This document shows positions 1,272 through 21,005 of a DNA stretch of 64,000 nt, piece after piece. Every line of letters begins with the position of its first letter. Position 1 is the first letter of the stretch. Below the pieces are notes generated by a model. That model searched no databases. It was not told the DNA's origin and saw only the letters and a list, made by a program, of their open reading frames with translations. Both the position numbers and the translations under genes were made by a program. Source of the stretch: Candidatus Latescibacterota bacterium (lineage in GTDB: Bacteria; Latescibacterota; UBA2968); assembly GCA_047619225.1 (NCBI GenBank), contig JBLHJX010000003.1, positions 4,294 through 68,293 on the forward strand, written 5' to 3'.

Positions 1272-2030
1272 ATGGCTAAAAACGATGAATTCTATATTGG
1301 TTATTTAGACCGTCCCCCCGCTGGTATAAAGAAATTTGTAAAAAAGGCAGTTGTGGGTGTTTTCTGTATTGCAGCGATTGTAGCGATGATCTTGGTGACT
1401 GGACAATTGCCTTTTGCGGCCAGTTTGTTTGAGTTTGGAAACGAGCGTACGTTTGAAGGGATAATTCAAGAACGGCCTTATCCTATATTGTTGGTGGATC
1501 GCCCAGGTCAGACAGGGCAGGCCGATGGTCTCTCTCGATATCCGCTTGTTGCATTTGGGAAAATGGGTGCAGATGGTTTGGTCGCAAATTTGAGCGGCCA
1601 ACGGGTGAAATTGGATGGCACATTGATCTATCGGGATAATCAGACGATGATCGAAGTGGTTGATGGAACGGTTCAGGTTATCGGGTCTAACACAACGGAT
1701 ATCCCTGTTGGTCAATCGTTGGGTGTGCAGACACTGGTGGGTGAGATTGTCGACAGCAAATGCTTTCTTGGCGTGATGAACCCTGGCAATTTGAAACCCC
1801 ATAAAGCGTGTGCTATTCGCTGTATCAGTGGTGGTATTCCACCCATTTTTTTGGTGAGAGACAAAGCCAATCACGCATCTCATTATTTGTTGGTATCTCA
1901 AGATGGACAATCGGTTAACCAGCAAGTTTTGGATAAGATTGCAGAACCTTTGCGGATAGTGGGTGAAGTTATAGTGCAGGGCGATTTGAAGATTTTGAAA
2001 GCAGATCCTAAGATGTTTCAAAGAATGTGA
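1272..2030 (+). CDS. Hypothetical membrane-anchored protein with a conserved-looking Cys cluster
   Basis: There is a single N-terminal TM helix (VVGVFCIAAIVAMILVTG) followed by a soluble domain with CFLGVMNPGNLKPHKACAIRCISGGIPP. Composition is protein-like. The overlapping 303-aa antisense ORF is compositionally implausible. Confidence 0.6.
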   Translation: MAKNDEFYIGYLDRPPAGIKKFVKKAVVGVFCIAAIVAMILVTGQLPFAASLFEFGNERTFEGIIQERPYPILLVDRPGQTGQADGLSRYPLVAFGKMGADGLVANLSGQRVKLDGTLIYRDNQTMIEVVDGTVQVIGSNTTDIPVGQSLGVQTLVGEIVDSKCFLGVMNPGNLKPHKACAIRCISGGIPPIFLVRDKANHASHYLLVSQDGQSVNQQVLDKIAEPLRIVGEVIVQGDLKILKADPKMFQRM

Positions 2031-2166
2031 TAAAAGATGGAAACAGAGCCAAAGAATAAGAATATCTAACACCGTAGGATGTGGTCGTCGTTCTTTTCTT
2101 GCTCTGAGAATACGGGAAATTGACTGAGTCCGTTTATTTCTTTTCCTCTTTTTGGGAGACGCATTG

Positions 2167-2946
2167 ATGACACTCAGTAGCAATGTCGTTGCTTTGACCG
2201 ATATGCCCACAGGCAAGCAGACCGCTGGAAAGTATGTGGTGAGGTTTGCCCAAAACGCGGTGGATATCGACGCGGCTTTGAAGCTTCGTTTTGATGTGTT
2301 TAACTTAGAATTGGGCGAAGGGTTGGCCGGGTCTTTTGATACGCAGCGTGATGAAGACCCATTTGATGCCTATTGTCATCATTTGATCGTAGAAGAGAGA
2401 GAGACCCAGCAGGTTGTTGGCACCTATCGGATGCAGTCATTTGAAATGGCGCAGGCAGGCATTGGTTTTTATTCAGCTGGCCAATATGACTTTTCTGGGC
2501 TTCCAGATGAGGTGGTCCAGCAGTCTATTGAGGTAGGACGAGCGTGTATTGCAGAAAAACACCGCAATTCGCGTGTGCTGTTTTTGTTGTGGCGTGGATT
2601 GGCGATGTATATGACACACAAACAAAAGCGATTTCTGTTTGGGTGCTGCTCGCTAACCAGCCAAGATGAAGCTGAAGGCAATCGTGTCATGAGACAACTC
2701 CAACAAAATGGTTATCTGCACCCAGAATTTCGTTTGGCCCCCAAGTCAGATTATGTCTGTGGCGGCGAAATCCCCAATCGGGTAGGCAGATTGAAGTTGC
2801 CAACGTTGTTTAAGATTTATTTGGATTATGGAGCAATGGTGTGTAGCTTTCCTGCAATAGATCGACAGTTTAAGACGGTCGACTTTTTGGTTATGTTAGA
2901 TTTGGATGCGCTAGATCCACGTACACGTCGGTTGTATTTTAGGTAA
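2167..2946 (+). CDS. GNAT-type N-acyltransferase, OlsB / 'putative hemolysin'-like (amino-acid N-acyltransferase of aminolipid synthesis)
   Basis: The sequence VVRFAQNAVDIDAALKLRFDVFNLELGEGL...DEDPFDAYCHHLIV...YRMQ resembles the OlsB-type GNAT family. I moved the start to ATG 2167, which has GGGAGA 7 nt upstream (the track starts at TTG 2152). A PlsC-type acyltransferase follows directly. Confidence 0.7.
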   Translation: MTLSSNVVALTDMPTGKQTAGKYVVRFAQNAVDIDAALKLRFDVFNLELGEGLAGSFDTQRDEDPFDAYCHHLIVEERETQQVVGTYRMQSFEMAQAGIGFYSAGQYDFSGLPDEVVQQSIEVGRACIAEKHRNSRVLFLLWRGLAMYMTHKQKRFLFGCCSLTSQDEAEGNRVMRQLQQNGYLHPEFRLAPKSDYVCGGEIPNRVGRLKLPTLFKIYLDYGAMVCSFPAIDRQFKTVDFLVMLDLDALDPRTRRLYFR

Positions 2947-3015
2947 AAAGAAAGCAGAAAGAAGGAAGAAGAAAAAATAAAGAATTCCTCCTTCTCTCTT
3001 TTTCAAGAGCTGTTT

Positions 3016-3810
3016 ATGCGAAGATTACGTGTCATACGACGATTGATCCTGTTTTCGACTGCAATTATAGGTATGTATTCTATTATTGTGGTGGGGCGTA
3101 TTGTGTGTCAGATTCGTGGACGGTCGTGGATTGGGTGGCGCAATAAATGGGTGCGCATTTGGGCGCGTTATACCATTTGGATTACAGGTGGCCGATTAAC
3201 GGTGATTGGAAATCCTCCCAAACCGCCTTTTGTTTTGGTCAGCAATCACTTGACCTATATCGATATTCCTGCGTTTTTTGCATCGGTGGACAGTGTATTT
3301 GTGTCCAAGATGGAAGTGCGGTCGTGGCCAATTTTGGGCCGGATTGTGACTGGGGTGAATACAATCTTTGTTGATCGCACACGTCGAAGTGATGTGGTGC
3401 GTGTGAATGAACTGATTGCAGAGCAAATAGATGATCAAAAAGGGTTGATCATTTTTCCGGAAGGGACCAGTACGGAAGGCGCCGAGGTGTTGCCGTTTAA
3501 ACCGTCGCTTCTGGCTTTTCCTGCAAGTCAGGGGGTGCCGGTTCATTATGCCGCCATTTCATATCGGACACCACCAGGTGAAATACCCGCACATATATCT
3601 GTCTGTTGGGCTGTTAATGGGGGCCCATTTTTGACGCATTTGATGCGGTTCAGTAGTATTTCGTCTTACGAAATTGAAGTGCGTTATGGTGCAGAGCCTG
3701 TGCTTGCATCAGACCGCAAAGTTTTGGCTGAAGAACTTTGGACACGGATATGCCAAGAATTTGTTCCAAGTGTAAAAAAGGAATCAGAATGTCAGAGCAC
3801 CCCCTTGTGA
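3016..3810 (+). CDS. 1-acyl-sn-glycerol-3-phosphate acyltransferase family (PlsC/OlsA-like lyso-aminolipid O-acyltransferase)
   Basis: It has an N-terminal TM helix, the HX4D motif (NHLTYID) and the FPEGTS motif. These are typical of the PlsC family. Confidence 0.8.
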   Translation: MRRLRVIRRLILFSTAIIGMYSIIVVGRIVCQIRGRSWIGWRNKWVRIWARYTIWITGGRLTVIGNPPKPPFVLVSNHLTYIDIPAFFASVDSVFVSKMEVRSWPILGRIVTGVNTIFVDRTRRSDVVRVNELIAEQIDDQKGLIIFPEGTSTEGAEVLPFKPSLLAFPASQGVPVHYAAISYRTPPGEIPAHISVCWAVNGGPFLTHLMRFSSISSYEIEVRYGAEPVLASDRKVLAEELWTRICQEFVPSVKKESECQSTPL

Positions 3811-4292
3811 TTTTGGACAATATCCGCTTCTTAGAGCAAGGTATATGGGTCTTGCAAAAGATGGATGAGGCGGTGTATGAGTGTCATGCCCATCCGTTTG
3901 AACAAGGGGGCATCGGTCGCCATATGCGGCACGTGTTAGATCATTATGCTTTGTTTTGGGATGGTTTGGGTGGTGGTGTGGTTGATTTTGATGACCGTGC
4001 GCGCGATTCAGAAGTTGAACAGAACCGGTTACGTGCGGTGGCTTTGTTGGAGACGTTGAGAAGCACATTAACCGATTGGATGGAGACCCGACCCGATCTG
4101 GATCGTCAAGTACGGGTTTGTCACAATGGGGCGTGGTGCCAATCGAGTGTGGGGCGTGAATTGCAACATTTGATCAACCACACGGTCCACCATTATGCAT
4201 TCATTGGGCTCATTTTGCGCTTGCAAGGCGCAGAGGTTGATGATACTTTTGGCGTAGCACCTTCGACCTATCAAGCGCAATTGGCAAAGTGA
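3789..4292 (+). CDS. DinB-family (DinB_2-like) metal-binding protein
   Basis: His-rich motifs HMRHVLDHY and INHTVHHYAF are typical of the DinB four-helix-bundle family. The start was moved to ATG 3789 (AAGGA upstream). It overlaps the end of the upstream gene by 22 nt. Confidence 0.55.
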   Translation: MSEHPLVILDNIRFLEQGIWVLQKMDEAVYECHAHPFEQGGIGRHMRHVLDHYALFWDGLGGGVVDFDDRARDSEVEQNRLRAVALLETLRSTLTDWMETRPDLDRQVRVCHNGAWCQSSVGRELQHLINHTVHHYAFIGLILRLQGAEVDDTFGVAPSTYQAQLAK

Positions 4293-5297: not shown

Positions 5298-7271
5298 ATG
5301 AGCAAATATGTGCAATATTATGGTGTCGATAGTCCACCAGCAGAACAGATGAACCTCCAAGCGGGGCCTGTGTCAATGGTGTTTGAGCCTGAACTGGGCT
5401 TTTTGCGCTACATCAAGGTGAATGGCCGTGAGATTTTGCGTGGGATTTATGTGGCCGTTCGCGATCACAATTGGGGCACAATTGCACCCAAAGTGGACAA
5501 TGTGTCGGTGGACCAATCGGGTGATGGTTTTGTGGTGACGTTTGATGTTTCCTGCGTGCAGCGAAACATTGATTTTTTCTGGCGCGGGCGCATTGTGGGT
5601 GATTCGAGTGGGGCGGTGGTTTATGAAATGGACGGAGATGCACGTTCCACATTCCTGCGCAACCGCATTGGTTTTTGTGTGTTGCACGCTCCGTCTGAGT
5701 GTGCGGGGGATGCGTGTGTGATCGAAAAGGCCGATGGCACAAGTGAAGAAGGGCATTTTCCCAGTGAGATTTCACCCCATCAGCCGTTTATAGATATGAA
5801 GGCGATTACGCACGAGGTGATCCCGGGTGTGAAGGCGCGAGTGGCTTTTGAGGGTGATACTTTTGAGATGGAAGACCAACGTAATTGGACGGACGCATCG
5901 TATAAGACTTATTGCACACCCTTGGCATTGCCTTTTCCTGTTGAAGTGAAAGCAGGCGAGAAGATCCAGCAATCGGTAACGGTTTCACTTGAAGGCGATG
6001 GGTTAGATACGGGTGAGGGAGAGGTCGCAGAGGACGTGACTTTTCAGGCAACAGGTGAACCTGCACGACGGTTGCCTGAAATTGGCTTGGGTGTGGCCAG
6101 CCACGGGCAGGTTTTAGGCGAAGAAGAGGTGTCTCGTTTGCGTGTGCTGAATCTGTCGCATTTGCGTGTGGATTTACATTTGTCGGTAGAGGGCTGGCGC
6201 AGCGCATTGGATCGGGCAGTTGCTGAAGTGACGGTGTTGGGTGTGAAGCTGGAGATGGCCATTTTTGTGAGCGATAATGCCCAAGCAGAGTTGGGTGTAT
6301 TGGGCGAAGCGTTGGCCGAGGCAAAACCAAATGTGGCACGCTGGTTTATTTTTCACGAAGGCGAGAAGTCAACATCGGCAGGTTGGGTGAAGTTGGCCCG
6401 TGAAGTTTTGAAAAAGTATGACACCAATCCCCCTTTGGGTGGGGGGACCCGAGCTTATTTCACGGAGCTCAATCGCAACCGTCCACCCGTGAAGGATATT
6501 GAGTGTGTGACCTATTCTCTCAATCCACAGGTACACGCGTTTGACAATGCGTCGATGGCAGAGACGTTGGAGGCCCAAGGTTGGACGGTGGACAGTGCAC
6601 GAAAGTTTGTGGGTGATTTGCCCATTTCTGTTTCGCCGGTGACATTGCGACCCCAATTTAATCCCAATGCGACTGGGAACGATTCTGAGGGTGATCTGGG
6701 AACTTTACCCGCCCAAGTAGACCCGCGGCAGATGTCCCTTTTTGGTGCTGGGTGGACACTGGGCAGTTTGAAATATTTGAGTGAGTCGGGTGTGCGCAGT
6801 GTGACCTATTTTGAAACGTCGGGATGGCGTGGGGTGCAAGAGACGCCCGATGGGTCGGCAGAACCTGAGCTTTTTCAATCCAAACCCTCATCTGTGTTCC
6901 CTTTGTATCACACGATGGCCTATTTTGGTGGTGTAAAGGGGGGCGAGATTGTTCCATCTGTTTCGAGCGACAAGTTGCGTGTGGAGGGTGCTATTTTGCG
7001 CAGGGGCAATTGGGTGCGGTTCTTGGTGGCGAACCTGACGGCAAAAGAACAGAAGATACGTGTGTCTTATGCAGGTCTAAAGGATACGGTTCGCGCTGAG
7101 GTAATGGATGAGACGTTTTTTGAAGATGCCACAGAGCACCCCGAACGATTTCGTTTGCGTAAGACCGAAATGCAAGGTGTGGTGATTGTTGAGGTGACAG
7201 ATGAAGCGTTTGAATTGACTCTGAAACCCTTTGCGTCGGTATGCGCTAAAGCAGCTGTTGATAATGGATAA
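5298..7271 (+). CDS. Hypothetical 657-aa cytoplasmic protein, function unknown
   Basis: GAGGAG lies 6 nt upstream of the ATG. Composition is protein-like throughout. There is no signal peptide and no motif I can assign. It ends 33 nt before the RuBisCO-like gene. Confidence 0.75.
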   Translation: MSKYVQYYGVDSPPAEQMNLQAGPVSMVFEPELGFLRYIKVNGREILRGIYVAVRDHNWGTIAPKVDNVSVDQSGDGFVVTFDVSCVQRNIDFFWRGRIVGDSSGAVVYEMDGDARSTFLRNRIGFCVLHAPSECAGDACVIEKADGTSEEGHFPSEISPHQPFIDMKAITHEVIPGVKARVAFEGDTFEMEDQRNWTDASYKTYCTPLALPFPVEVKAGEKIQQSVTVSLEGDGLDTGEGEVAEDVTFQATGEPARRLPEIGLGVASHGQVLGEEEVSRLRVLNLSHLRVDLHLSVEGWRSALDRAVAEVTVLGVKLEMAIFVSDNAQAELGVLGEALAEAKPNVARWFIFHEGEKSTSAGWVKLAREVLKKYDTNPPLGGGTRAYFTELNRNRPPVKDIECVTYSLNPQVHAFDNASMAETLEAQGWTVDSARKFVGDLPISVSPVTLRPQFNPNATGNDSEGDLGTLPAQVDPRQMSLFGAGWTLGSLKYLSESGVRSVTYFETSGWRGVQETPDGSAEPELFQSKPSSVFPLYHTMAYFGGVKGGEIVPSVSSDKLRVEGAILRRGNWVRFLVANLTAKEQKIRVSYAGLKDTVRAEVMDETFFEDATEHPERFRLRKTEMQGVVIVEVTDEAFELTLKPFASVCAKAAVDNG

Positions 7272-7304
7272 TGTGGGTGTTTATGTTTTTTAAGGGTGGT
7301 AAAT

Positions 7305-8567
7305 ATGAGCGAACGGATTGTTGCAAAATATCTCATGGAGACGGCCTTCCCTATAGAACAGGCAGCAGATGTTGTTGGGGGTGAACAATCTTCGGGTACG
7401 TTTGTGCAAGTGCCTGGTGAAACAGCTGATTTGCGTGAGCGGTTTCGGGCACGGGTTGAAGAGATTAAAGTGTTAGAGACGGTGTCGGAACCGAGTTTAC
7501 CTGGCGGGGCTGTGCCGAAAACGGGTGGGACTGAATACACACGTGCCGAAGTGACCTTGTCTTTTTCACTTGAAAATATGGGTGTGAACTTGCCCACTCT
7601 GATTGCCACGGTAGCTGGCAACTTGTTTGAGCTTCGCGATGTATCAGGTCTAAAGTTGTTAGATTTTGATGTGCCGCAAGCTTTTGCAGAGCGATATGTG
7701 GGACCCCAGTTTGGCATTGCAGGCACACGCAAACTTGCGGGGGTATTTGATCGCCCGATTATTGGCACGATTATCAAGCCGAGTGTGGGGTTAACACCCC
7801 AGGCGACAGCGGATGTGACAGGAGACTTGGCTGAGGCGGGGATTGATTTTATTAAAGACGATGAATTGATGGCCGACCCACCCCATTCGCCCTTAAAAGA
7901 GCGTGTGGAAAAGGTGATGGCGGTGATTAATAAGGCGGCGGATCGCACAGGGAAGAAGGTGATGTTTGCGTTTAATATTACCGATGAGTTGGACGCGATG
8001 CTTAGGCACCACGATACGGTTTTAGACGCGGGTGGCACTTGTGTGATGGTGAGTTTGAACAGTGTCGGATCGATGGGCGTTGCGCATTTGCGCAAGCATT
8101 GTCAGTTGCCCATTCATGGGCATCGCAATGGGTGGGGTATGTTGACACGGCATCCGATGTTGGGGATTGGGTTTTCGGCCTATCAGAAGATTTGGCGATT
8201 GGCTGGGGTGGATCATATTCATGTGAATGGCTTGCGTAATAAATTTTGGGAGCCTGACGATTCGGTGGTGCGATCTATTGAGGCATGTTTTAAACCTTTC
8301 TTAGGAGGGTATGACATCATGCCTGTGATTTCCTCTGGGCAGTGGGGCGGGCAAGCACCCGATACTTATAAACGTGTGGGGCGTGTGGATGTGATGCATT
8401 TGGCTGGCGGTGGCATTATGGCACATCCGGGTGGCCCTGCATCGGGCATGAAGGCAATGAGCCAAGCTTGGGAGGCAGCTGTACAGGGTATTGATTTAGA
8501 AACCTATGCAACGGATCATATAGAACTGCAACAAGCGATTGAAAAATTTGGAAATATGAACCGATAG
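7305..8567 (+). CDS. RuBisCO large-subunit-like protein (form IV RLP)
   Basis: Motifs seen: EQSSGTF, AGNLFE, GTIIKPSVGL, DFIKDDE, IHGHRNG, HIHVNGLRNK, PVISSGQWGG and LAGGGIMAHPGG, colinear with RuBisCO large-subunit active-site segments. The length of 420 aa is typical of RLPs. No small-subunit or phosphoribulokinase gene is nearby. The start was moved to ATG 7305 (AAGGGTGG upstream). Confidence 0.9.
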   Translation: MSERIVAKYLMETAFPIEQAADVVGGEQSSGTFVQVPGETADLRERFRARVEEIKVLETVSEPSLPGGAVPKTGGTEYTRAEVTLSFSLENMGVNLPTLIATVAGNLFELRDVSGLKLLDFDVPQAFAERYVGPQFGIAGTRKLAGVFDRPIIGTIIKPSVGLTPQATADVTGDLAEAGIDFIKDDELMADPPHSPLKERVEKVMAVINKAADRTGKKVMFAFNITDELDAMLRHHDTVLDAGGTCVMVSLNSVGSMGVAHLRKHCQLPIHGHRNGWGMLTRHPMLGIGFSAYQKIWRLAGVDHIHVNGLRNKFWEPDDSVVRSIEACFKPFLGGYDIMPVISSGQWGGQAPDTYKRVGRVDVMHLAGGGIMAHPGGPASGMKAMSQAWEAAVQGIDLETYATDHIELQQAIEKFGNMNR

Positions 8568-8701: not shown

Positions 8702-10306
8702 ATGGCTGAAACCGAAGACTATAATGGCGGTGCTTCCGATGTGAGCAAGTGGGGACGTATTGAGATTACGTTTGAGAGTTCGGAAGTGTACCAAAACCCG
8801 ATACAAGAAGTGGCTTTGCAGGTGCTTTTTACATCGCCCTCAGGTGCCGCAACGCATGTGATGGGGTTTTGGGATGGAAGCACGCGTTTTCGGGCACGGT
8901 TTAGCCCCGAAGAAGAAGGGGTGTGGTCGTATGTAACGTTTTGTTCGGATATGGATAATGGGGGTTTACACAATCGAGAAGGTGACTTTATGTGTGGCCC
9001 AGCCGATACCATTACTGTGTTTGATGAACATGGTCCCATCCGTTTGTCTGGCGATCGCAGTCATTTTATACACGCCGATACAACGCCCTTTTTTTGGCTG
9101 GCCGATACCGCTTGGAATGGTTGTTTGCATTCGAGTAAAGATGAGTGGCGTTATTATTTGAGCGAACGGGTGCGCCAAGGGTTTACGGCGGTGCAGTGGG
9201 TGGCCACGCCTTGGCGATCTGCGCCTGCGGATAGAGAGGGTGAGAAAGCTTTTGAGGGTGTGGAGAAGATTAAGCTCAATCCACGGTTTTTTCAGCGTTT
9301 GGATGAGTGGTTGGAAATGACTTATGACGTTGGTTTGCTCAATGCGCCCGTGATGTTGTGGACCCACACGGGCGGTGAAAATGCCGAGATGAATCCTGGT
9401 GTGGGTTTGGCTGAAGACCAATTGATTTTGTTGGCCGAATATATGGTGGCGCGTTGGGCCAGTTATCCTATCGTCTGGATTTTGGGCGGTGATGGCAATT
9501 ACACTGGCGAACTGGCCGAACGGTGGCATCGCATTGGTCATACCGTGTTTGGCAAAGGCGTACATGCACCGGTGGCGATGCATGTTCAGGGGCAACAGTT
9601 TCCTGTTGAAGAATTTCGCAACCAAAGTTGGATGGATATTTTGGGGTATCAAAGTGGGCACGGAGATGGGGATAAGACGTTGGAGTGGATTGTGAAGGGG
9701 CCGCCAGCAGAAGAGTGGAAAAAGAGCCCGCGTCAATTTTATATGAATATGGAACCGGCTTATGAAAATCATGTGGCCTATCAATCGAAGAAACCACACG
9801 ATGCGGCATCTGTGCGAATGGCAATTTATTGGAGTCTGCTCAATGCACCTACAGCAGGGGTAACGTATGGGGGGCATGGGGTGTGGGGGTGGGACAATGG
9901 CAGCGGCCCACCTATGGATCATCCAAACTCAGGTACGCCTTTACCGTGGCGAGATGCGTTGATTATGGAAGGTGCCGAGCAGATGCGGCATTTGCGAGAT
10001 GCTTTTGAAACCATCCATTGGTGGCGGTTGCGTCCTGCACCAGAGATTTTGGCCGAACAACCAGGTGAAGAAGATGTACACGCACATATTCTCATTTCAA
10101 AGGCAGAAGCCAATGATTGGGTTGTCGCCTATACACCCAAAGGCAAAGCTGTGAAAGTCAATATGTCGGGATTGAAGAAACGCTTGGGCGCGGTTTGGTA
10201 TAACCCACGCACGGGTGATCCCGAAGCAGCAGAGTCGCGTGTAGAGGGTGACGTTCGCATCTTCGAGACCCCCGACGAAGAGGATTGGTTATTGGTGATG
10301 GCGTAA
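8702..10306 (+). CDS. DUF5060 + DUF4038 (glycoside hydrolase family 140-like) protein, with no signal peptide
   Basis: The N-terminal segment WGRIEITFES...VMGFWDGSTRFRARFSPEEEGVWSY resembles DUF5060. PFFWLADTAWNG...GFTAVQWV resembles the DUF4038/GH140 catalytic domain. CAGGAG lies 7 nt upstream of the ATG. Confidence 0.7.
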   Translation: MAETEDYNGGASDVSKWGRIEITFESSEVYQNPIQEVALQVLFTSPSGAATHVMGFWDGSTRFRARFSPEEEGVWSYVTFCSDMDNGGLHNREGDFMCGPADTITVFDEHGPIRLSGDRSHFIHADTTPFFWLADTAWNGCLHSSKDEWRYYLSERVRQGFTAVQWVATPWRSAPADREGEKAFEGVEKIKLNPRFFQRLDEWLEMTYDVGLLNAPVMLWTHTGGENAEMNPGVGLAEDQLILLAEYMVARWASYPIVWILGGDGNYTGELAERWHRIGHTVFGKGVHAPVAMHVQGQQFPVEEFRNQSWMDILGYQSGHGDGDKTLEWIVKGPPAEEWKKSPRQFYMNMEPAYENHVAYQSKKPHDAASVRMAIYWSLLNAPTAGVTYGGHGVWGWDNGSGPPMDHPNSGTPLPWRDALIMEGAEQMRHLRDAFETIHWWRLRPAPEILAEQPGEEDVHAHILISKAEANDWVVAYTPKGKAVKVNMSGLKKRLGAVWYNPRTGDPEAAESRVEGDVRIFETPDEEDWLLVMA

Positions 10307-10349: not shown

Positions 10350-10361
10350 ATAGGAGGCGTG

Positions 10362-11312
10362 ATGAACGTTGTGTATCTCGAACCCGTTCCCGAAGATGTC
10401 GAATCGATTGTTCGAGAATGTTTGCCAAGTGAGTTGTCATTGCGGGTGCTCAAGGTCGATGAAAAGCCCGAGGATGTTGTTGCCGATGCCGATTTTTTGT
10501 TGGTGGCAACTACAAAGGTGACACCGAGTGTGTTGGATGCGGCTCCAAAATTAAAACATATCCAACATCAAGGTGTGGGTTATAACAATATTGATTTAGA
10601 CGCGGCCCGAGCCAAGGGTGTGACGATTGGATTGACGCCTGAAGGGACGAGTATTCCCGTTGCAGAACATGTGTTCCTTTTGATCTTGAGTCTGTATCGC
10701 AAGCTCTTTGAAGCGCGTCAATCCTTGCGCGATGGCAAATGGTTGCAGTGGGAATTGCGTCCACATTCCTACGACTTGGTGGGCAAGACGGTTGGCATTG
10801 TGGGGTTGGGCCGTATCGGGCGTGAGTTGACCACACGCTTACGAGCTTTTGGTTGCGAGGTGTTTTATACCGATGCTGTTCGTGTGTCTGAAGCCGAAGA
10901 GTTGCACTTAGGCGCGGTGTTTACCGATTTGGATGACTTGTTGCAACGATCTGATATTGTGAGTTTGCACGTACCACTTTTGCCCGAAACTCGCAACTTG
11001 GTTGGCACACGTGAATTGGCGCTGATGAAGTCGAATGCTATTTTGATCAATGCCGCACGTGGCGGACTTATTGATGAGAAGGCTTTGGAAGTCGCCCTAA
11101 ATGAGGGCCAAATTTCAGGCGCAGGTTTGGATGTTTTTGAACAAGAACCACCACCCAAAGATCATCCTTTGTTGTTTATGGACAATGTGGTTGCGGTTCC
11201 CCACATTGCGGCGGGGACGCGAGATGCTTACGCGACCAAGATGCGTGCCGCTTTTGCCAATATGCAACGGGTCGCACGCGGGGAAGATCCGATCAATCAG
11301 GTTGAATTGTAA
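10362..11312 (+). CDS. D-isomer-specific 2-hydroxyacid dehydrogenase (glyoxylate/hydroxypyruvate reductase-like)
   Basis: It has the NAD motif VGIVGLGRIGRE, then NAARGGLIDE and PHIAAGT (catalytic His region). The start is ATG 10362 after AGGAGG. Confidence 0.85.
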   Translation: MNVVYLEPVPEDVESIVRECLPSELSLRVLKVDEKPEDVVADADFLLVATTKVTPSVLDAAPKLKHIQHQGVGYNNIDLDAARAKGVTIGLTPEGTSIPVAEHVFLLILSLYRKLFEARQSLRDGKWLQWELRPHSYDLVGKTVGIVGLGRIGRELTTRLRAFGCEVFYTDAVRVSEAEELHLGAVFTDLDDLLQRSDIVSLHVPLLPETRNLVGTRELALMKSNAILINAARGGLIDEKALEVALNEGQISGAGLDVFEQEPPPKDHPLLFMDNVVAVPHIAAGTRDAYATKMRAAFANMQRVARGEDPINQVEL

Positions 11313-11337
11313 CCCACGCGATCAGGGAGCTTTTACG

Positions 11338-12420
11338 ATGTTTAACGCCAATCATAAAGACGAATATCCCGATACCGGTTTGATCGATCAATATGCCTAT
11401 CCTCCAGCCGGACATGATATTGATCTGTGGAAACGCGCGGTTCCGGGTGCCGTGGGGTTGGACGCCGAGGTGATTTCAGAATTGGATGCTTGTGTGAAGG
11501 CAAATCCTGATAATAGCAAGCGGCGAGAACAGCGGTGGGCTTTGTGGCGGAATGGGTATTTGATTGATTCTGTGGGTGAGTTTCACGATCCGATTAATGT
11601 GGCTTCTTTGCGTAAGACATGGCACGCGATGATTTTGGGGGCGTCTATCCTCAATGGGAAAGTGTCGTCATATGATCAGAAAGTGAGCGAATGGCAGACC
11701 GATATGGAGGGCCATCATCGCGAAGCAACGTGGCGACACGTGATCACCCAGTCGGCGGGGTTGGATTATCCTTATGGTGATTATCCAGCCTTCAAGCCGG
11801 GTGAGATGTGGACGTATTCCGATTTGAATTTGGTGCACTTTTGTCATGCGATGGGCAAGGTGTATGGCAAGGCTGATTTTTATGACGATTATGCGGACGT
11901 GGCCAAGCAGGCTTATTTCGATGCGATTGGGATGCAAGGGTGGGATACGAAGATTGTGTTTGATTCGGGAAGTCAGATGGATGATGGGGTTCGGTTTGTG
12001 ATCGACCTGGATCATATGGGGCGGTTGGGGTTGCTGGCTTTGGCGCGCGGACGTTGGATGGGGCAACAGTTGGTGCCGCGTTGGTTTGTTGAGGAGTTGG
12101 AGACCAAGCAGACCGAGGGGATGCAGGTGAACTATGTGGGACCCAATGATGGGATTTGCCACTTAAACGACTATCCCAATGCATTTCCCGAATGTCCGTA
12201 TGGTTATTTGACGTGGACAAATTCAGCGGGTGAACATTGGTCCGATGCAGATCGGGGTTGGGCATTTGGTGCGGGGGCTGGGGGCACATACATTATGTGG
12301 AATTATCGGTTGGGCATTGTGTTTGCCGCTGTGTCGTTAGATCTTAAACCTTTGGAGCGAACCATTCCACAGATTATCGAATCTCATATTTTGGGTGATA
12401 ACCCATTGGTGGTATTGTGA
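11338..12420 (+). CDS. Beta-lactamase-fold serine hydrolase (esterase/lactonase-like)
   Basis: It carries SxxK (VASLRKTWHA) and YxN (YSDLN) motifs. The start was moved to ATG 11338 (GGGAG upstream). The track's 5' extension overlaps the previous gene. Confidence 0.55.
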   Translation: MFNANHKDEYPDTGLIDQYAYPPAGHDIDLWKRAVPGAVGLDAEVISELDACVKANPDNSKRREQRWALWRNGYLIDSVGEFHDPINVASLRKTWHAMILGASILNGKVSSYDQKVSEWQTDMEGHHREATWRHVITQSAGLDYPYGDYPAFKPGEMWTYSDLNLVHFCHAMGKVYGKADFYDDYADVAKQAYFDAIGMQGWDTKIVFDSGSQMDDGVRFVIDLDHMGRLGLLALARGRWMGQQLVPRWFVEELETKQTEGMQVNYVGPNDGICHLNDYPNAFPECPYGYLTWTNSAGEHWSDADRGWAFGAGAGGTYIMWNYRLGIVFAAVSLDLKPLERTIPQIIESHILGDNPLVVL

Positions 12421-13850
12421 TGTTTTCGGGTGATCAGGTGATTCCAAAAGCTGATTTGTTGGATGCGCTTCCGCCCGAATGGCCGGAGGATATATCTGCA
12501 GAGTTGCAGGCGCGCATTCAAACACGCCGTCGCAAGTTGGTGGTTTTAGATGATGATCCGACAGGTGCTCAGGCGTTGCACAGTGCGCCGGTGCTCACGC
12601 GTTGGACGGCAGATGTATTGCGGTCTGCATTGTTAAATGATGCGGCACTGTTTTTTATTGTGAGCAATACGCGCAGCCTGCCACAAGGTGAAGCGGTTGC
12701 GGTGACACGTGAGATTGTGACGGCTGTGGCAGAAGTGGCAGATGCGTGTGGTGTGGGTTTTGATGTGTTGGTGCGGGGAGACTCTACATTGCGTGGGCAT
12801 TATCCACACGAACTCAATGTGGTTCGCGAGGTTTTAGGCGAGCGCGGGCAACATTTTGATGGGGTGGTTTTGTGCCCGTTTTTCTTAGAAGGTGGACGAC
12901 TAACAGCTTTTGATGTGCAGTGGGTAGCCGATGGTGAGCTGTTGGTTCCGGCAGGGCAGACCGAATATGCACGAGACCGTACGTTTGGATATACACATTC
13001 CAATCTTCGCGATTGGGTGGCAGAGAAAACGGGTGGAGGTGTTTCGCGGGACGATGTTGTATCAGTGTCTCTGGATGTGATTCGCAAACAAGGCTCTGAA
13101 GGTGTTAGTGATGTGTTGATAAACGTGAATGAGGGGCAGCCTGTTGTTGTGAATGCGGTGAGTTATCGGGATATGGAAGTGTTTGTTACTGGTTTGTTGG
13201 ATGCCGAAGATGCGGGTAAGCGTTTTATGTTTCGCACGGCAGCGTCTTTTTTAAAGGTGCGAAGTGGCACGGCCGAGCGTGGTTTGTTGCGAGGTAATGA
13301 TTTTGGTGTGTTGGACGGGTGTGGCGGATTGGTGATTGTGGGTTCCTATATCCAAAAGAGCACGGCGCAATTGAATGCAGCATTGGCTGTTGCGGGTGTG
13401 GTAAGTGTCGAGTTGCAGGTTGCGCGGGTTTTGAATTTGGAAGATCGGGCAGATGAAATTGCACGCGTGAGAAGTGGTGTGGAACAAGCGCTTGAATCGG
13501 ATCAAAATGTGATTGTTTTTACGAGCCGCACGCAAGACTTGGTAGGTGATTTGGATGCGGGGAAACTGATTGGTTCTGCGTTGGTAGAGGTTGTCCGCCA
13601 ATTGTCGGTGCGGCCTCAGTATGTTATTGTGAAGGGTGGTAATACGGCTATCTCGGTTGTGCGGGATGGGTTGCAGACAGAGCAAGCTTGGGCATTGGGG
13701 CAAATTTTGCCGGGCGTGCCTGTGTGGCAATTGGGTGAGGAGAGCCGCTTGCCCAACGCGCCGTGTGTGGTTTTTCCGGGCAATGTGGGGCAGGAAAACA
13801 GTTTGGCTGAGACGATTTCAATTTTACGGGAGGCACGGGATGGCATATAA
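12420..13850 (+). CDS. Four-carbon acid-sugar kinase family protein (DUF1537), paralog 1
   Basis: VVLDDDPTGAQ is the family's N-terminal hallmark, and the C-terminal segment VKGGNTA is also present. The start overlaps the upstream stop (GTGATG). Confidence 0.8.
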   Translation: MFSGDQVIPKADLLDALPPEWPEDISAELQARIQTRRRKLVVLDDDPTGAQALHSAPVLTRWTADVLRSALLNDAALFFIVSNTRSLPQGEAVAVTREIVTAVAEVADACGVGFDVLVRGDSTLRGHYPHELNVVREVLGERGQHFDGVVLCPFFLEGGRLTAFDVQWVADGELLVPAGQTEYARDRTFGYTHSNLRDWVAEKTGGGVSRDDVVSVSLDVIRKQGSEGVSDVLINVNEGQPVVVNAVSYRDMEVFVTGLLDAEDAGKRFMFRTAASFLKVRSGTAERGLLRGNDFGVLDGCGGLVIVGSYIQKSTAQLNAALAVAGVVSVELQVARVLNLEDRADEIARVRSGVEQALESDQNVIVFTSRTQDLVGDLDAGKLIGSALVEVVRQLSVRPQYVIVKGGNTAISVVRDGLQTEQAWALGQILPGVPVWQLGEESRLPNAPCVVFPGNVGQENSLAETISILREARDGI

Positions 13851-14673
13851 AACACATTCGATAAGCTACGAATTGCTGAATCAAAAAGGACACGAACCTG
13901 GGCCCGGTCGTGAAATTGAGGTGCATGCCTCGATTGAAGAACTTGAACAATTGGGCCATGAAGGTTATTTGGTTAGAGAAGAATTGTTCCAAGGTGAGGC
14001 CTTGGGCAAGTTACAAGATGCTTTGGATCGTTTAGAAGAAAACGAAAGTGCGCGATTTAAGGAGAACCCATCACAAGAGCGATCTTGGGGAAACATTCCC
14101 CGTCATTTGATGGACAAAGATTCCGTGTTCTTGGATCTGTTAAAGTTTCAACCGGTTTTGTCTGTGGCACGCGCGATGATGGGACCTTTGGTGCGTTTGC
14201 GCGGGTTGAGCGCACGCATCAGTTATCCGGGGCCCGTGCGACACGAGACACCTTGGCATCAGCATTTGCGTGTGGTGTCCAACCCTTTGCCGCCGTGGTT
14301 TTCTCGTCCACACGGATTGGACGCGTTGATTTATCTGGATGATTTAAATGAAAAGACGGGCGCTGTTGCCATTGTACCTCAGTCTCATAATTGGTTGGAC
14401 AGAGAACCGTCCGGTACTTATGAACGTGTTGAGGGCGAACTGGAAGTGTGCGTAAAGGCTGGCGGCGTTGTGATGATCCATTCAAATCTTTGGCATCGAG
14501 GTTTGCCCACACTGGGTGCCAAACGCCGCATGCTCATTTTAAGCTTTACGCCCACGTGGTTGCGTCGCTCACCTCATGGCGGTGCACCACCTGAGAATGG
14601 TTTAACCCAAGCGGTCTTAGATGGTAATGATGAAGAAGCTCGGATTTTATTGGGCAAGGGTGGATATACATAG
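13840..14673 (+). CDS. Phytanoyl-CoA dioxygenase (PhyH) family Fe(II)/2-oxoglutarate oxygenase, atypical metal motif
   Basis: PhyH-like segments are present (IVPQSHNW, IHSNLWHRGLP), but WHQH replaces the usual WHxD. ATG 13840 follows GGGAGG and overlaps the kinase gene by 11 nt. Confidence 0.7.
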   Translation: MAYKTHSISYELLNQKGHEPGPGREIEVHASIEELEQLGHEGYLVREELFQGEALGKLQDALDRLEENESARFKENPSQERSWGNIPRHLMDKDSVFLDLLKFQPVLSVARAMMGPLVRLRGLSARISYPGPVRHETPWHQHLRVVSNPLPPWFSRPHGLDALIYLDDLNEKTGAVAIVPQSHNWLDREPSGTYERVEGELEVCVKAGGVVMIHSNLWHRGLPTLGAKRRMLILSFTPTWLRRSPHGGAPPENGLTQAVLDGNDEEARILLGKGGYT

Positions 14674-14751
14674 GCAAGTTTTTTTATTCAAATGCCCATC
14701 ATAGAAGTAGGATTCCCAAGTCATATTATCAATAAGCAAAAGGAGCAGTTC

Positions 14752-16929
14752 ATGTCTGAGCGAATAGAAACAGGTGGTTTAAAAATTGATGCTGAATTAT
14801 ACACTTTGGTGACGGATGAAATTGTTCCTGGCACAGGCGTAGATGTGGATGCTTTGTGGGAAGGGTTTGGCAAGATTGTTTCAGATTTGGCACCCAAGAA
14901 TCGTGCATTGTTAGAAAAACGGGATGCGATTCAAGCGCAGATTGATGCTTGGCATGCAGAACGCAAAGGGCAAGGTCTTGACGCGGTGGCCTATAAAGCA
15001 TTTTTGCAAGAGATTGGATATTTGCAGCCTGAAGGGGATCACTTTCAAGTGCTCACAACAAATGTCGATCCCGAAGTTGCGAAGGTGGCTGGGCCACAGT
15101 TGGTGGTGCCCGTAGACAATGCGCGATATTGTTTGAACGCGGCCAACGCACGTTGGGGCAGTCTGTACGATGCGTTTTATGGCACCGATGTGATTGCTGA
15201 AACAGGTGGTGCTGAAAAAACGGGTGGCTACAATCCCGTGCGAGGTGAAAAAGTGGTTGCGAAAGCACAGGCTTTCTTGGATGAAACAGTGCCTCTGATA
15301 AGCGGATCTTACGCAACTGCGACGGGATTTTCACTTGGTGAGGTGGGTGGAAAGAAGGTGTTGATTGTGACTGTGGATGGTGAAAGCACGGGATTGCAAT
15401 CGCCAGATCAGTTTGTGGGTTATGTAGAAAAATATGGTGGGTTGATGACTGTGTTGCTTCAGAACAATGGATTGCACATCGAAATTCATATTGATGTCAA
15501 TCATCCCATTGGCAAAACACATCCGGCAGGGGTGAAGGATGTTGTGTTGGAGTCTGCGATTACGACCATTCAAGATTGTGAAGATTCTGTGTCGGCGGTT
15601 GATGCCGAAGATAAGGTGCGGGTGTATCGCAATTGGTGTGGTTTGATGAAGGGTACGTTGGTAACAACGTTTCAAAAAGGGGATGAGACGGTGAGGCGGA
15701 GGTTGAATCCAGATCGGCAGTATTCGGGTGTGGATGGAGAACCCGTCACATTGCCAGGGCGCAGTGTTTTGCTGGTGCGCAATGTGGGCATGCATATGTA
15801 TACCGATGCAGTGGTCACGGCTGATGGTGAAGATATTCCCGAAGGTTTTTTAGACGCGCTGGTGACTTCTTTGGCTGCGATTCACGATTTAAAGGGCAAT
15901 GGCGAGTTCAAAAACAGCCGATCTGGCAGTGTGTATATTGTGAAGCCGAAGATGCATGGGGCAGACGAAGTGGCGGCCACGGTGGAATTGTTTGACCGAG
16001 TGGAGGAAGTTTTGGGGCTGGAAAAGAATACGTTGAAAATTGGCATTATGGACGAAGAACGTCGCACAACTGTAAATTTGAAACGCGCTGTATGGGAGGC
16101 CCGCGAACGGTTGATTTTTATCAATACGGGATTTTTAGATCGCACGGGTGATGAGATGCATACCAGTATGGAAGCGGGTGCGATGTTGCCCAAGGCTGAG
16201 ATTAAGGAACAACCTTGGTTGGGTGCTTATGAAGATTGGAATGTGGATATTGGCATTGAGACTGGTTTGATTGGAAAAGGGCAAATTGGCAAAGGGATGT
16301 GGGCCATGCCCGATCAGATGAAAGCCATGATTGATTCTAAGATGGGACACCCCAAAGCAGGGGCCAGCACAGCTTGGGTGCCCTCTCCAACGGCAGCAAC
16401 GCTTCATGCGATTCACTATCATCAGGTGAATGTGGCAGATCGGCAAGACGAATTGGCCAAGCGGGAACGGGCAAGTTTAGACGCTATTTTGACGCCACCT
16501 TTATTAGATCGTGCGTTGACGGTCGAGGCCATTCAACGCGAGTTGGATAACAATGCCCAAGGCATTTTGGGGTATGTGGTACGTTGGATCGATCAGGGCA
16601 TTGGGTGTTCTAAGGTGCCCGATATGAACGATGTAGGCTTAATGGAAGACCGCGCCACGTTGCGCATTTCAAGTCAACACATAGCCAATTGGCTGCATCA
16701 AGGCATTGTGAGTGCCGAACTGGTGCGTGCCACACTTAAGAAGATGGCAGCAGTGGTTGATCGTCAAAATGCTGGAGATGCGCTTTACAAAAATATGGCG
16801 CCAAACTTTGACGCCAGCATCGCGTTTCAGGCGGCATTGGATTTGGTGTTTAAAGGGCGTGATGTGGCAAATGGGTATACTGAACCTGTGTTGCATGCGC
16901 GTCGCCGTGAAGCAAAAGCATCTTCTTAA
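14752..16929 (+). CDS. glcB: Malate synthase G
   Basis: At 725 aa it has characteristic segments ([25 protein letters not shown]). The start was moved to ATG 14752 after AAGGAG. Confidence 0.95.
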
Positions 16930-18061: not shown

Positions 18062-18071
18062 GGGATTGTGG

Positions 18072-19445
18072 ATGTCTGGTCTGATTTTAAGTTATTATGG
18101 CGATGATTTTACGGGTTCAACCGATGTGATGGAGTCGCTGTCCTTTGCAGGGGTGAAGACGGTGTTGTTTATGGCACCGCCAGCGCCTGAGCAGATCGCA
18201 CGATTTCCCGGTGTGAAAGCAGTGGGTGTTGCTGGGCGCACACGGTCGATGGCTCCTGATGATATGGTGCATGAGTTACGCCCTGTTTATGAAGCATTCA
18301 AGGGGTTGAACACTCCGATTGTACATTACAAAACGTGTTCAACATTTGATTCGGCACCCGATGTGGGCAGCATTGGACAGGCGATTGATTTGGGACACGA
18401 CGTGTTTGGATGTCCCTTTGTGCCGCTTGTTGTGGGTGCACCGGTTCTGAATCGGTATTGCGCGTTTGGCAATCTGTTTGCCCGGTCGGGATTAGAAAGT
18501 GACTTGTTTCGCTTAGATCGCCATCCTACGATGAAACAGCATCCGATCACACCGATGACGGAGGCCGATTTGCGGCTGCATTTGGCCAAACAAACCGATA
18601 AGGCTATTGGATTGCTGGATCTTTTGGCGTTGGGGTTGGATGATGAGGGTTTGGATCGGGCGTTTGATTCGGTGATGGATGCAAGACCCGATGTTGTGTT
18701 GTTTGATACGGTGTATGATGTGCATTTGCCAAAGATTGGGCGTCTAATTTGGCAACACGCACAAGCGGGCGCGTTGTTTGTTGCGGGGTCTTCGGGTGCT
18801 GAGTATGCATTGGTTGCCCATTGGCGCGATGTGGGCCTCATTCCTGAAGCACCTGTAATTCCAACTGTGGATAGGGTCGATCAAATTGTGATTGTTTCTG
18901 GCAGTTGTTCGCCTGTGACGGCCAATCAAATTGATTATGCCGTTCAGAACGGATTTGTTGAGGTTGCACTTGATCCCGTTTCTTTTGCAGATGAATCTAT
19001 GGTAGAGGGTGCGATTTCTGCAGGGATTAAAGCGGGTTTAGAAGCCTTAGCAAGTGGGGGGAGTGTGATTTTACACACGGGACGGGGGCCGAATGACCCG
19101 CGTATTGCAAAGACGACGGACTATTTGAAGGCGCAAGGGTATAGCGATTTGGACATCAAGCTGAGAAGTGGTGAGGTATTTGGTACGGCATTGGGGCGTA
19201 TTTTGAAGGGCATTTTGGCACAATCTAATTTGAAGCGTGCGGCAACAGCAGGAGGCGATACGTCGTATTATGTGGCAAAGGCCTTGGGCATTGAGGCATT
19301 GGAGGTGGTTGCGCCCACAGCACCCGGATCGCCTATGTGTCGGATTTATGGGGTGGATTTGGATGGTGTGGAGATGACGTTTAAAGGTGGGCAGGTAGGT
19401 AAAGTGGATTTTTTCGTTACTGTGAAGACGGGACAGTTTTCATAA
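18072..19445 (+). CDS. Four-carbon acid-sugar kinase family protein (DUF1537), paralog 2
   Basis: The N-terminal YYGDDFTGSTD motif and the C-terminal GGDTSYYV and FKGGQVG segments are typical of DUF1537 kinases. Confidence 0.8.
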   Translation: MSGLILSYYGDDFTGSTDVMESLSFAGVKTVLFMAPPAPEQIARFPGVKAVGVAGRTRSMAPDDMVHELRPVYEAFKGLNTPIVHYKTCSTFDSAPDVGSIGQAIDLGHDVFGCPFVPLVVGAPVLNRYCAFGNLFARSGLESDLFRLDRHPTMKQHPITPMTEADLRLHLAKQTDKAIGLLDLLALGLDDEGLDRAFDSVMDARPDVVLFDTVYDVHLPKIGRLIWQHAQAGALFVAGSSGAEYALVAHWRDVGLIPEAPVIPTVDRVDQIVIVSGSCSPVTANQIDYAVQNGFVEVALDPVSFADESMVEGAISAGIKAGLEALASGGSVILHTGRGPNDPRIAKTTDYLKAQGYSDLDIKLRSGEVFGTALGRILKGILAQSNLKRAATAGGDTSYYVAKALGIEALEVVAPTAPGSPMCRIYGVDLDGVEMTFKGGQVGKVDFFVTVKTGQFS

Positions 19446-19460: not shown

Positions 19461-20294
19461 ATGGCAATAAAGATTGCTTTGGTCGGTGCCGCAGGTAACA
19501 TGGGCACACGGGCTTATAACGCATTGCATGTAGATTCCGATTACGAATTGTTTTGTATAGAAAGTCCGGCAGGTGTAGAAAAAATGCGTGAGCGGGGTGT
19601 TGATTGTGTGCTGTTGGAGGAAGCGGTTCAGGGGGCCGATGTGGCATTGATGACCGTGCCCGATATTTTGGTGGGCAAAGTGTCTACTTTGGTTGTGCCC
19701 CATTTAAGGCCAGGAGCCATGCTCATTGTGTTAGACCCCGCAGCACCTTACGCGGGTGAATTGCCCGTGCGAGATGATGTGAGCTACTTTGCAACACATC
19801 CGGCACATCCGCCGGTGTTTAATGATGAAGTAGATATGGCGGCTCGGCGGGATTTTTTTGGCAGTGGTTTGGCCAAACAATCGATTGTGAATGCGTTGAT
19901 CCAAGGGCCGGAAGAAGATTATGCCAAGGGTGAAGCAATTGGCAGCCGCATGTTTCAACCCATCTTACGGTCGCATCGGGTCACTTTGGAACAGATGGCG
20001 ATGTTGGAACCCGCGATGTCTGAAACCATGGCGGCCACTTGCATTACGGTGATGCGTGAAGCAATGGATGAAGCCATTTCACGCGGTGTGCCTGCCGAAG
20101 CCGCACGCGACTTCATGATGGGACATATCAATATTGAGTTGGCCATTGTATTTGATGAAATTGATTGGGAGTTTTCCGACGGCGCAAAATTGGCGGTAGA
20201 AAAGGCAAAAGAGACTGTTTTTCAGGCCGATTGGAAGAAAGTTTTTGACCGGGAGAATTTGTTAGCAAGCGTAAAAGATATTGTAAAAGGTTAA
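19461..20294 (+). CDS. Small NAD(P)-binding Rossmann-fold oxidoreductase (277 aa), family unresolved
   Basis: The N-terminal IALVGAAGNMG is a dinucleotide-binding motif. AGGAGTAGGA lies upstream. The gene starts 15 nt after the kinase paralog 2 stop. Confidence 0.6.
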   Translation: MAIKIALVGAAGNMGTRAYNALHVDSDYELFCIESPAGVEKMRERGVDCVLLEEAVQGADVALMTVPDILVGKVSTLVVPHLRPGAMLIVLDPAAPYAGELPVRDDVSYFATHPAHPPVFNDEVDMAARRDFFGSGLAKQSIVNALIQGPEEDYAKGEAIGSRMFQPILRSHRVTLEQMAMLEPAMSETMAATCITVMREAMDEAISRGVPAEAARDFMMGHINIELAIVFDEIDWEFSDGAKLAVEKAKETVFQADWKKVFDRENLLASVKDIVKG

Positions 20295-20351
20295 TATCAC
20301 ATGGGGCACGGTTTCTGTGCCTTTCTGTTTTCATACGATTGGGCTTGTTTT

Positions 20352-21005
20352 ATGCCTGCTGTTATCGACTCACCACGCGTGTTGTTAAAAGACCGTGCAT
20401 ATGAAGCTCTGAAAGCGTTGATCCTTCAGGAGGTTTTTCCGCCCGGATCATTTCTTTCAGAACGTCAATTGGTTGTGCGTTTGGAAATGAGCAAGACACC
20501 TATTCGTGCGGCCTTGGAACGTTTGGAGAGTGAGGGGTTGGTTTCTGTATCACCTCAGCAAGGCATTTTGGTGCGCGAAATTTCTGTGCATGAGGTGGTC
20601 GATATTTTTGATGTGCGCATTGCATTGGAGCGGTTTGCAATTCAACGGCTAGCGGGTGTGTTATCAGCAGAACAACAAGCGCAAGTAGAACAAAATTTAA
20701 GCGAACAAAAACAGGCACTTATACAAGGTGATGTACCCGTGTTTACAGAATTGGATGCAGACTTTCATATGATGCTGTGTGGTTTTTTAGGAAATCGTGA
20801 GGTGGTACATGTGATGCGCCGGTTGCGTGATCGGCTGTATCGCATCGCGCTTCAAGTGCTGCGACACGACGTGAATCGCATTCGCACCAGTTACGAAGAA
20901 CACAGAGAAATTTTCGACATGTTGGTTGCCCGTGACGGTGCGCGTGCTGCCGACTTGATTGATGCACACTTAGCTTATGGTAAGCAGGTTCTCATATCAA
21001 GATAG
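20352..21005 (+). CDS. GntR-family transcriptional regulator (FadR/FCD subfamily)
   Basis: It has a winged-HTH segment (SERQLVVRLEMSKTPIRAALERLESEGLV) and a helical C-terminal domain with His residues. The start was set to ATG 20352, since the upstream extension looks non-coding. Confidence 0.8.
   Translation: MPAVIDSPRVLLKDRAYEALKALILQEVFPPGSFLSERQLVVRLEMSKTPIRAALERLESEGLVSVSPQQGILVREISVHEVVDIFDVRIALERFAIQRLAGVLSAEQQAQVEQNLSEQKQALIQGDVPVFTELDADFHMMLCGFLGNREVVHVMRRLRDRLYRIALQVLRHDVNRIRTSYEEHREIFDMLVARDGARAADLIDAHLAYGKQVLISR

Follow-up and report, generated by a model that had tools for sequence, protein, structure and literature searches.

Which reaction is carried out by the RuBisCO-like protein (RLP) encoded at positions 7305–8567 (+ strand) of a 64,000-nucleotide stretch of contig JBLHJX010000003.1 (positions 4,294 to 68,293; assembly GCA_047619225.1) from a Candidatus Latescibacterota bacterium? 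Annotation pipelines name this protein and thousands of its relatives only 'RuBisCO large subunit family protein', a label that, in uncultured phyla, could be mistaken for a sign of carbon fixation. An earlier interpretation of the whole stretch, here called the window, which used only its letters and translations (the sequence-only reading), had proposed an enolase-, decarboxylase- or transcarboxylase-type RLP that does not fix CO2, and had made no connection between the RLP gene and the apiose island that surrounds it. [quoted passage not shown]

The open reading frame (7296/7305–8567) translates without stops and yields 420 amino acids when counted from the ATG at 7305. As judged from the sequence, this ATG is more likely to be the start than the GTG at 7296, because it is preceded by AAGGGTGG, a better ribosome-binding site than the one at the GTG, and because homologues begin at the residue that matches it (MERI...). 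The residue numbers of the sequence-only reading are exact if counted from GTG 7296, but the start that it gave, 7305, is the likelier ATG, from which we number the protein below. No second RLP was found elsewhere in the genome of the window, leaving the 7305–8567 protein as its sole RLP.

The protein matched PF00016 (RuBisCO_large, E = 3e-72) and PF02788 (E = 2e-9) in Pfam. Its best-scoring NCBIfam model was that of OiaX (NF042437, an equivalog), with 522 bits (E = 1e-156) against a cut-off of 700; a true OiaX protein reached 786 bits on the same model. The Pfam and NCBIfam scores of the window protein are far too strong for a chance resemblance. No other model in the NCBIfam scan matched at a comparable level, the scores being 253 bits for form III RuBisCO (cut-off 497), 174 bits for MtnW (cut-off 409) and 165 bits for form II (cut-off 489), and there seems to be no dedicated NCBIfam model for OiaT-type RLPs. 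We built a maximum-likelihood tree of 61 sequences (IQ-TREE, LG+C20 PMSF) that included form I and form III representatives and no form II sequence, form II being judged by its model score. The window protein fell into a 56-member RLP superclade (support 100/98) from which forms I and III, MtnW and the RLPs of Chlorobium and R. palustris are excluded. Besides a Haloarcula sequence, this superclade has three clades: one holds C. necator N-1, Paraburkholderia sprentiae, Microvirga and Azospirillum oryzae, the next joins 3NWR to LysR-linked RLPs, and the third, with 47 members (99/95), includes the window RLP. Within the same 47-member clade, the PGAP-named rhizobial OiaX proteins form a single long branch (length 1.29). 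The exclusion from forms I and III, the low form III, form II and MtnW scores, and the D-apiose/D-apionate neighbors described below bear out the proposal of an RLP with enolate chemistry of the decarboxylase or transcarboxylase type.

The predicted fold agrees with this placement. The AlphaFold model (predicted local distance difference test score 88.8, predicted template modeling (TM) score 0.89) matched best to an RLP from Burkholderia fungorum, 3NWR (TM 0.90, root-mean-square deviation 1.8 Å), followed by the Chlorobium RLP, R. palustris RLP2 and form III enzymes, and the top 50 PDB matches listed were all RuBisCO or RLP structures. 3NWR, a structural-genomics entry with no stated function, is closer to the window RLP than any other solved structure (423 bits, 45% identity). 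The active-site signatures of the two are almost alike, except that 3NWR has an Asn at position 177 and a Tyr at position 298; it groups with the LysR–RLP–kinase clade that lacks ApnO. Form III RuBisCO (for example Thermococcus kodakarensis 3A12) has the same fold (TM about 0.87) and shares most catalytic residues, but is only about 30% identical. Several known RLP functions were rejected. An MtnW/YkrW enolase is disfavored by the 174 bits against a cut-off of 409, by the 13 of 21 tabulated positions at which MtnW differs and by its distance in the tree; Chlorobium-type and R. palustris RLP2 proteins (1TEL, 1YKW, 2QYG) form a separate clade (100/100) at about 30% identity and with low scores, the range behind these two rejections being 174–205 bits. 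A role in the D-hamamelose pathway was also set aside, with only about 25% identity to the RLP of Brucella anthropi, which we take to be of the hamamelose type.

We mapped the 21 canonical RuBisCO positions by alignment to the form I large subunit CbbL of C. necator. Fifteen of them are retained (E60, T65, N123, K175, K201, D203, E204, H294, R295, H327, K334, S379, G381, G403 and G404) and the remaining six are substituted (W66F, T173I, K177S, H298W, L335F and G380S), such that the set of RuBP (ribulose bisphosphate)-binding and catalytic residues that is intact in forms I–III is broken at six positions. The carbamylated Lys and the Mg2+ ligands are present as K184, D186 and E187 of an FIKDDE motif. 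The codons of the catalytic core, K158 (=K175), S160 (=K177), K184 (=K201), D186 (=D203) and E187 (=E204), lie at 7776–7865 (+ strand), and all five columns are invariant across 37 aligned relatives. The sequence-only reading had claimed a retained carbamyl-lysine/metal core with an altered KPK lysine. The first part holds; all of its motifs are present (in its numbering IIK161-P-S163-VGL, FIK187-D-D189-E190, H274-G-H276-R277 and H307-I-H309...K316, as well as PVISSG, GGGIMAHPGG, EQSSGTF and AGNLFE), and the alignment to CbbL agrees with each residue equivalence that it drew. The change of K177 to Ser is equally real, but it is not special to this protein. The 21-position signature of the window RLP, ETFNIKSKDEHRWHKFSSGGG, is carried by 79 of 83 sequences of the clade that includes C. 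necator N-1 (the N-1 clade), 110 of 122 sequences of the window's own clade and 73 of 80 metagenome relatives, and Ser at position 177 is also kept in nearly all sequences that deviate from it. On these alignments, the Ser is a clade-wide trait and no peculiarity of the window RLP.

The genes around the RLP, all on the + strand, place it in a pathway. An ApnL (D-apionolactonase)-like protein is encoded at 5298–7271 (NCBIfam NF049900, E = 6e-103, 345 bits, below the cut-off of 750), with its stop codon 33 nucleotides ahead of the RLP start. It is 31% identical to the proteins at the ApnL position of rhizobial, Microvirga and Paraburkholderia clusters, and Apionate_lact_N/M/C proteins occupy that position in relatives. 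The product of 19461–20294 (Pfam PGDH_C) resembles the D-apionate oxidoisomerase ApnO; identity, taken across the entire length, is 50–51% to the ApnO proteins of R. phaseoli and C. necator N-1, the latter (F8GV06) being one of the four characterized enzymes in Table 1 of PMC13753588. Just upstream, 18066–19445 encodes a DUF1537 kinase similar to the 3-oxo-isoapionate kinase OiaK (NF042436, 485 bits, below the cut-off of 700) that is 41–49% identical to the kinases adjoining the RLP in all reference loci. Downstream of the RLP, a GH140-like apiosidase is encoded at 8702–10306, with a DUF5060 domain, an Apiosidase catalytic domain and a C-terminal domain (PF13204, E = 2e-68; PF16586; PF12904). 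Together with a Gfo/Idh/MocA dehydrogenase that is 51% identical to ApsD and is located on a separate contig (C124), the genome holds a complete set of apiose-pathway genes. We therefore consider it very probable that the window RLP acts in the breakdown of D-apiose or D-apionate, which makes it a case of known chemistry in a new member.

The oxidative routes for apiose breakdown differ in how they use an RLP. In the route reportedly described by Carter and coworkers in 2018, ApsD, ApnL, ApnO and OiaK are followed by the RLP decarboxylase OiaX and two isomerases. The same work is said to have identified OiaC as a decarboxylase outside the RLP family, and OiaT as a 3-oxo-isoapionate-4-phosphate transcarboxylase/hydrolase (EC 3.7.1.28) that forms 3-phosphoglycerate and glycolate. 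A second route, ApnO-OiaK-OiaT, starts from D-apionate and contains the RLP transcarboxylase/hydrolase (PMC13753588, PMC6302742), and a third, ApnO-OiaC-LerK, also starts from D-apionate (PMC13753588) and would use no RLP. The listing of OiaC among RLP clades in the sequence-only reading was thus mistaken; the RLP of this kind is OiaT. RLP activities have been reported for A. radiobacter K84 (OiaX) and for X. autotrophicus, the OiaT activity being that of X. autotrophicus (PMC6302742).

Gene context links the window RLP to the second of these routes by way of the N-1 clade. In C. necator N-1, the RLP (F8GV07) stands between ApnO (F8GV06) and OiaK, and no ApsD, ApnL, TIM or RpiB gene was found within 12 kb. 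With ApsD, ApnL and the isomerases missing from it, this locus matches the OiaT route as described. RLPs of the N-1 clade with about 80% identity also come from Ancylobacter, Starkeya and other Xanthobacteraceae and, among the matches listed, lie in the same arrangement. Across 80 N-1-clade loci we found ApnO in 49 and the kinase in 71. Isomerase genes of the LerI/DerI type (TIM or RpiB) were found beside the RLP in none of these 80 loci, nor in any of 43 metagenome loci of the window's clade or 8 loci of other context, whereas TIM and RpiB genes lie between the kinase and ApnO in two of six OiaX loci. The window's island also lacks LerI/DerI-type isomerases; the only TIM of its genome is the housekeeping pgk–tpiA gene, and housekeeping-like RpiB genes exist. 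A single TIM was likewise present in six of the seven RLP-bearing genomes searched (the window's own and six relatives), one of them from the same genus and 98% complete.

The active-site residues point in the same direction. The window RLP is identical to the C. necator N-1/Microvirga/Paraburkholderia clade at all 21 canonical positions. All six PGAP-named OiaX proteins instead have D60, G123, A177, Q327, Y335 and G or C379, where E, N, S, H, F and S stand in the window RLP. We also defined 99 columns that are near-invariant in the 53 members of the superclade other than OiaX and compared them with three OiaX sequences. In all three, 22 of the 99 columns were altered, many of which are still RuBisCO-like in the other members. 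Only seven conserved columns, none of them catalytic, distinguish the 122 sequences of the window's clade from the 83 of the N-1 clade. Because of this disparity, OiaX looks like a derived offshoot, and the window RLP appears to retain an ancestral state common with the N-1 clade. The sequence-only reading had held carboxyl-transfer chemistry to be plausible, and the carboxylation machinery that is kept here indeed matches that of the clade assigned to the transcarboxylase/hydrolase.

On this basis the RLP would catalyze the final committed step in the oxidative breakdown of D-apiose. The GH140-like hydrolase would cut apiosides to D-apiose, the ApsD-like dehydrogenase would convert the sugar to its lactone, and ApnL would open the lactone to D-apionate, which ApnO and OiaK would turn into 3-oxo-isoapionate and then its 4-phosphate. 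The RLP would bind 3-oxo-isoapionate 4-phosphate on the Mg2+ held by carbamylated K184, D186 and E187 and remove its carboxyl group, giving the 2,3-enediolate of erythrulose 1-phosphate. Most likely, the CO2 would then be returned to the neighboring carbon, next to the phosphorylated one, and hydration and cleavage in the manner of RuBisCO would follow, with 3-phosphoglycerate and glycolate as the products of this OiaT-type reaction. Glycolate could pass through glyoxylate to malate by means of the 2-hydroxyacid dehydrogenase and the malate synthase G encoded in the island.

The pattern of retained and lost residues can be rationalized with such a mechanism. 3-Oxo-isoapionate 4-phosphate would resemble the beta-keto-acid intermediate of RuBisCO but with one phosphate. 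Recarboxylation and cleavage would be expected to need groups that are retained: the Mg site, K175 and H294, the carboxylate-binding group K334–E60–N123, H327 and S379, and the P1-phosphate site (T65, G381, G403 and G404). The distal-phosphate residue H298 would be dispensable, and Trp takes its place. Retention of the P1-phosphate, Mg, carboxylation and hydration residues with loss of H298 therefore fits the recarboxylation and cleavage of a substrate with a single phosphate. A plain decarboxylase could presumably do without N123, H327, S379 and E60, and these are exactly the residues lost in OiaX.

Several observations weigh against assigning the window RLP to OiaT. We infer the OiaT label of the N-1 clade from gene context and from the descriptions in later papers; its members have generic names in UniRef and NCBI. 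The window RLP lies outside this clade, at 55–57% identity, in a sister clade to which the OiaX branch belongs as well, and its score on the OiaX model (522 bits) exceeds those of the N-1-clade proteins (446–456 bits). The loci also differ in layout, the N-1 clade having a tight RLP–kinase–ApnO operon and the window an island in which ApnL, GH140 and further genes are spread with them over 15 kb, although both pair the RLP with ApnO and OiaK without LerI/DerI isomerases. The lack of isomerase genes nearby is weak evidence when taken alone, because four of the six OiaX loci also have none adjacent, and the absence of such isomerases from the genome is limited by the 89% completeness of the metagenome-assembled genome (MAG). 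The position of malate synthase G in the island (14692–16929, 1189 bits to the NCBIfam malate synthase G model) says little: it is the only malate synthase of this genome, but also belongs to the core genes of the order, 29 of 31 genomes having it regardless of the RLP, and we largely dropped it as a sign of glycolate production. Isocitrate lyase was not found in the window's genome; because the lineage has malate synthase G but no isocitrate lyase, its glyoxylate must derive from sources other than the glyoxylate shunt.

These points bear most directly on a decarboxylase of the OiaX type, which would release CO2 and L-erythrulose 1-phosphate, the latter being isomerized later to D-erythrose 4-phosphate. 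The OiaX model is the best match of the window RLP in the library, the OiaX branch sits in its 47-member clade, and the pathway context of ApnL, ApnO and OiaK, and presumably the substrate, are shared. Several true OiaX loci, as noted, have no isomerase gene next to them either. The score, on the other hand, is well under the curated cut-off that true OiaX passes, identity to OiaX proteins is 48–49%, and the window RLP departs from all six of them at six canonical positions and from the OiaX sequences compared at the 22 altered columns. The length of the OiaX branch speaks for a derived enzyme, and no second TIM-family isomerase was found in the window's own genome or in five of the six RLP-bearing relatives. 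We consider a plain decarboxylase unlikely here, though it deserves to be kept in view, and continue to favor the transcarboxylase/hydrolase.

A different substrate altogether is less probable again. ApnO is promiscuous and accepts D-erythronate and D-ribonate (PMC13753588), so the true substrate of the RLP could be another 3-oxo acid-sugar phosphate, made by this enzyme or by way of the second kinase of the island (12417–13850), and the outcome of the reaction could be new. The island does encode that kinase, and with it a PhyH oxygenase as well as a beta-lactamase-fold protein. Moreover, the same signature is found in RLPs not accompanied by ApnO, which lie either beside LysR, TRAP, SDR or pyruvate kinase genes or beside an Asp/Glu-racemase-family gene, and for this reason the family probably handles more than one substrate. 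Against such a substrate in the window stand the closest relatives (62–76% identity), which almost always keep ApnO and often ApnL, the ApnL gene that abuts the RLP gene, and the complete apiose-pathway gene set of the genome. A broader version, on which we would place a small wager at most, is that the widespread RLPs with the conserved signature (those of the window's clade, of the RLP–kinase–racemase loci and of the LysR–RLP–kinase loci) are not all apionate enzymes and form a broad family that decarboxylates, recarboxylates and cleaves various 3-oxo acid-sugar phosphates; the island RLP might then also take the product of the second kinase, for example one derived from another sugar acid of rhamnogalacturonan-II.

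A true RuBP carboxylase of form II/III or III-like type, for instance in nucleotide salvage, is hardly credible: the window RLP retains 15 of the 21 canonical residues, among them the carbamylated Lys and the Mg ligands as well as K175, H294, K334 and N123, but K177, H298 and G380 are replaced, the tree excludes forms I and III at 100/98, the form III and form II models score 253 (cut-off 497) and 165 bits, the neighbors are sugar-acid catabolic genes, and the absence of rbcS and prk that the sequence-only reading had noted in the window extends to the whole genome, in which a search found no RbcS and no PRK-sized gene, the PRK-family matches being two 227-amino acid open reading frames of uridine-kinase size.

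Here the RLP marks an island for scavenging the plant cell wall (apiose/rhamnogalacturonan-II) in a Latescibacterota MAG. The comparison suggests that a residue test, E60/N123/H327/S379 versus D/G/Q/G, could separate apiose RLPs of the transcarboxylase/hydrolase type from those of the decarboxylase type, and that plain decarboxylation may be the derived state among them. Were this true, the test would improve annotation, and the family would supply natural enzymes that perform a RuBisCO-like carboxylation half-reaction on a four-carbon enediolate.

The distribution of the RLP was examined among relatives. Its 90% cluster consists of members with Latescibacteria names, and relatives at 68–76% identity come from contigs labeled Gemmatimonadota, Latescibacteria, Verrucomicrobia and Rubrobacteraceae, along with unlabeled ones. 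In most of these the RLP is accompanied by ApnO, and usually by the kinase as well; two have ApnL upstream in addition, and the Verrucomicrobia contig has the kinase and no ApnO. Among 30 related genomes the RLP is patchy, being present in both other genomes of the genus, in 4 of 16 others of the family and in none of 12 of the sister family, which fits an accessory catabolic island. The RLP homologue of one related genome (locus L112, G004:C68:6130-7377) was read through one in-frame TAG, which may reflect a pseudogene, an error in sequencing or another cause.

Two arrangements without ApnO recurred. A triad of RLP, DUF1537 kinase and Asp/Glu-racemase-family protein was found in L002 (11998-15323) and in 19 of the 43 metagenome loci (among L115-L194, for example L139, L142 and L146), and its RLPs share the active-site signature of the window RLP. 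In Rufibacter, this triad lies inside a pectin-degradation locus with GH28 and pectinesterase genes. The second arrangement is a LysR–RLP–kinase module (L001, L004, L008 and L010) with genes for an MFS or TRAP transporter, an SDR protein and pyruvate kinase. Its 90% cluster has members with names from Chimaeribacter, Pantoea, Salmonella, Klebsiella and Pectobacterium, and the A. oryzae RLP, which is of this LysR-context type, is 74% identical to the ApnO-linked RLP of Microvirga. The genome of the window itself encodes, on contig C105 (11366-12916), a 50%-identical homologue of the racemase-family protein of the triad, which adjoins a xylose-isomerase-like TIM-barrel gene and has no RLP beside it.

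The 2-hydroxyacid dehydrogenase of the island (10359–11312, + strand; PF02826 and PF00389, all NCBIfam matches below cut-off) belongs to the D-2-hydroxyacid dehydrogenase family, like glyoxylate reductase and phosphoglycerate dehydrogenase, and may act on the hydroxy-acid products. At least nine N-1-clade operons (L035, L043, L049, L052, L053, L066, L074, L085 and L090) have a homologue with 33–37% identity to it downstream of ApnO and on its strand, and in six of them it lies within about 300 bp of ApnO. This suggests a recurring role in the pathway and fits hydroxy-acid products, short of proof. The gene opens a sub-cluster (10359-14673) between the RLP and OiaK that continues with the beta-lactamase-fold protein (about 11100–12420), the second, divergent DUF1537 kinase at 12417–13850, whose best NCBIfam match, D-threonate kinase, reaches only 47 bits, and the PhyH-family protein, the gene for which ends at 14673. 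Apart from PhyH in one relative (P0024), these genes are absent from the islands of the relatives examined, and they may constitute a second acid-sugar pathway.

A gene for a VIT1-family protein, ending at 18061, precedes that of OiaK. Downstream of ApnO, a GntR/FCD-family regulator (20301–21005, + strand; Pfam GntR and FCD) probably controls the island, and most related clusters are flanked by NanR/GntR regulators. On contig C124 (7463-10885), the ApsD-like dehydrogenase adjoins a large DUF6785/DUF6784 membrane protein, and a second protein of similar size is encoded at 1892-3856; the two could be apiose transporters.

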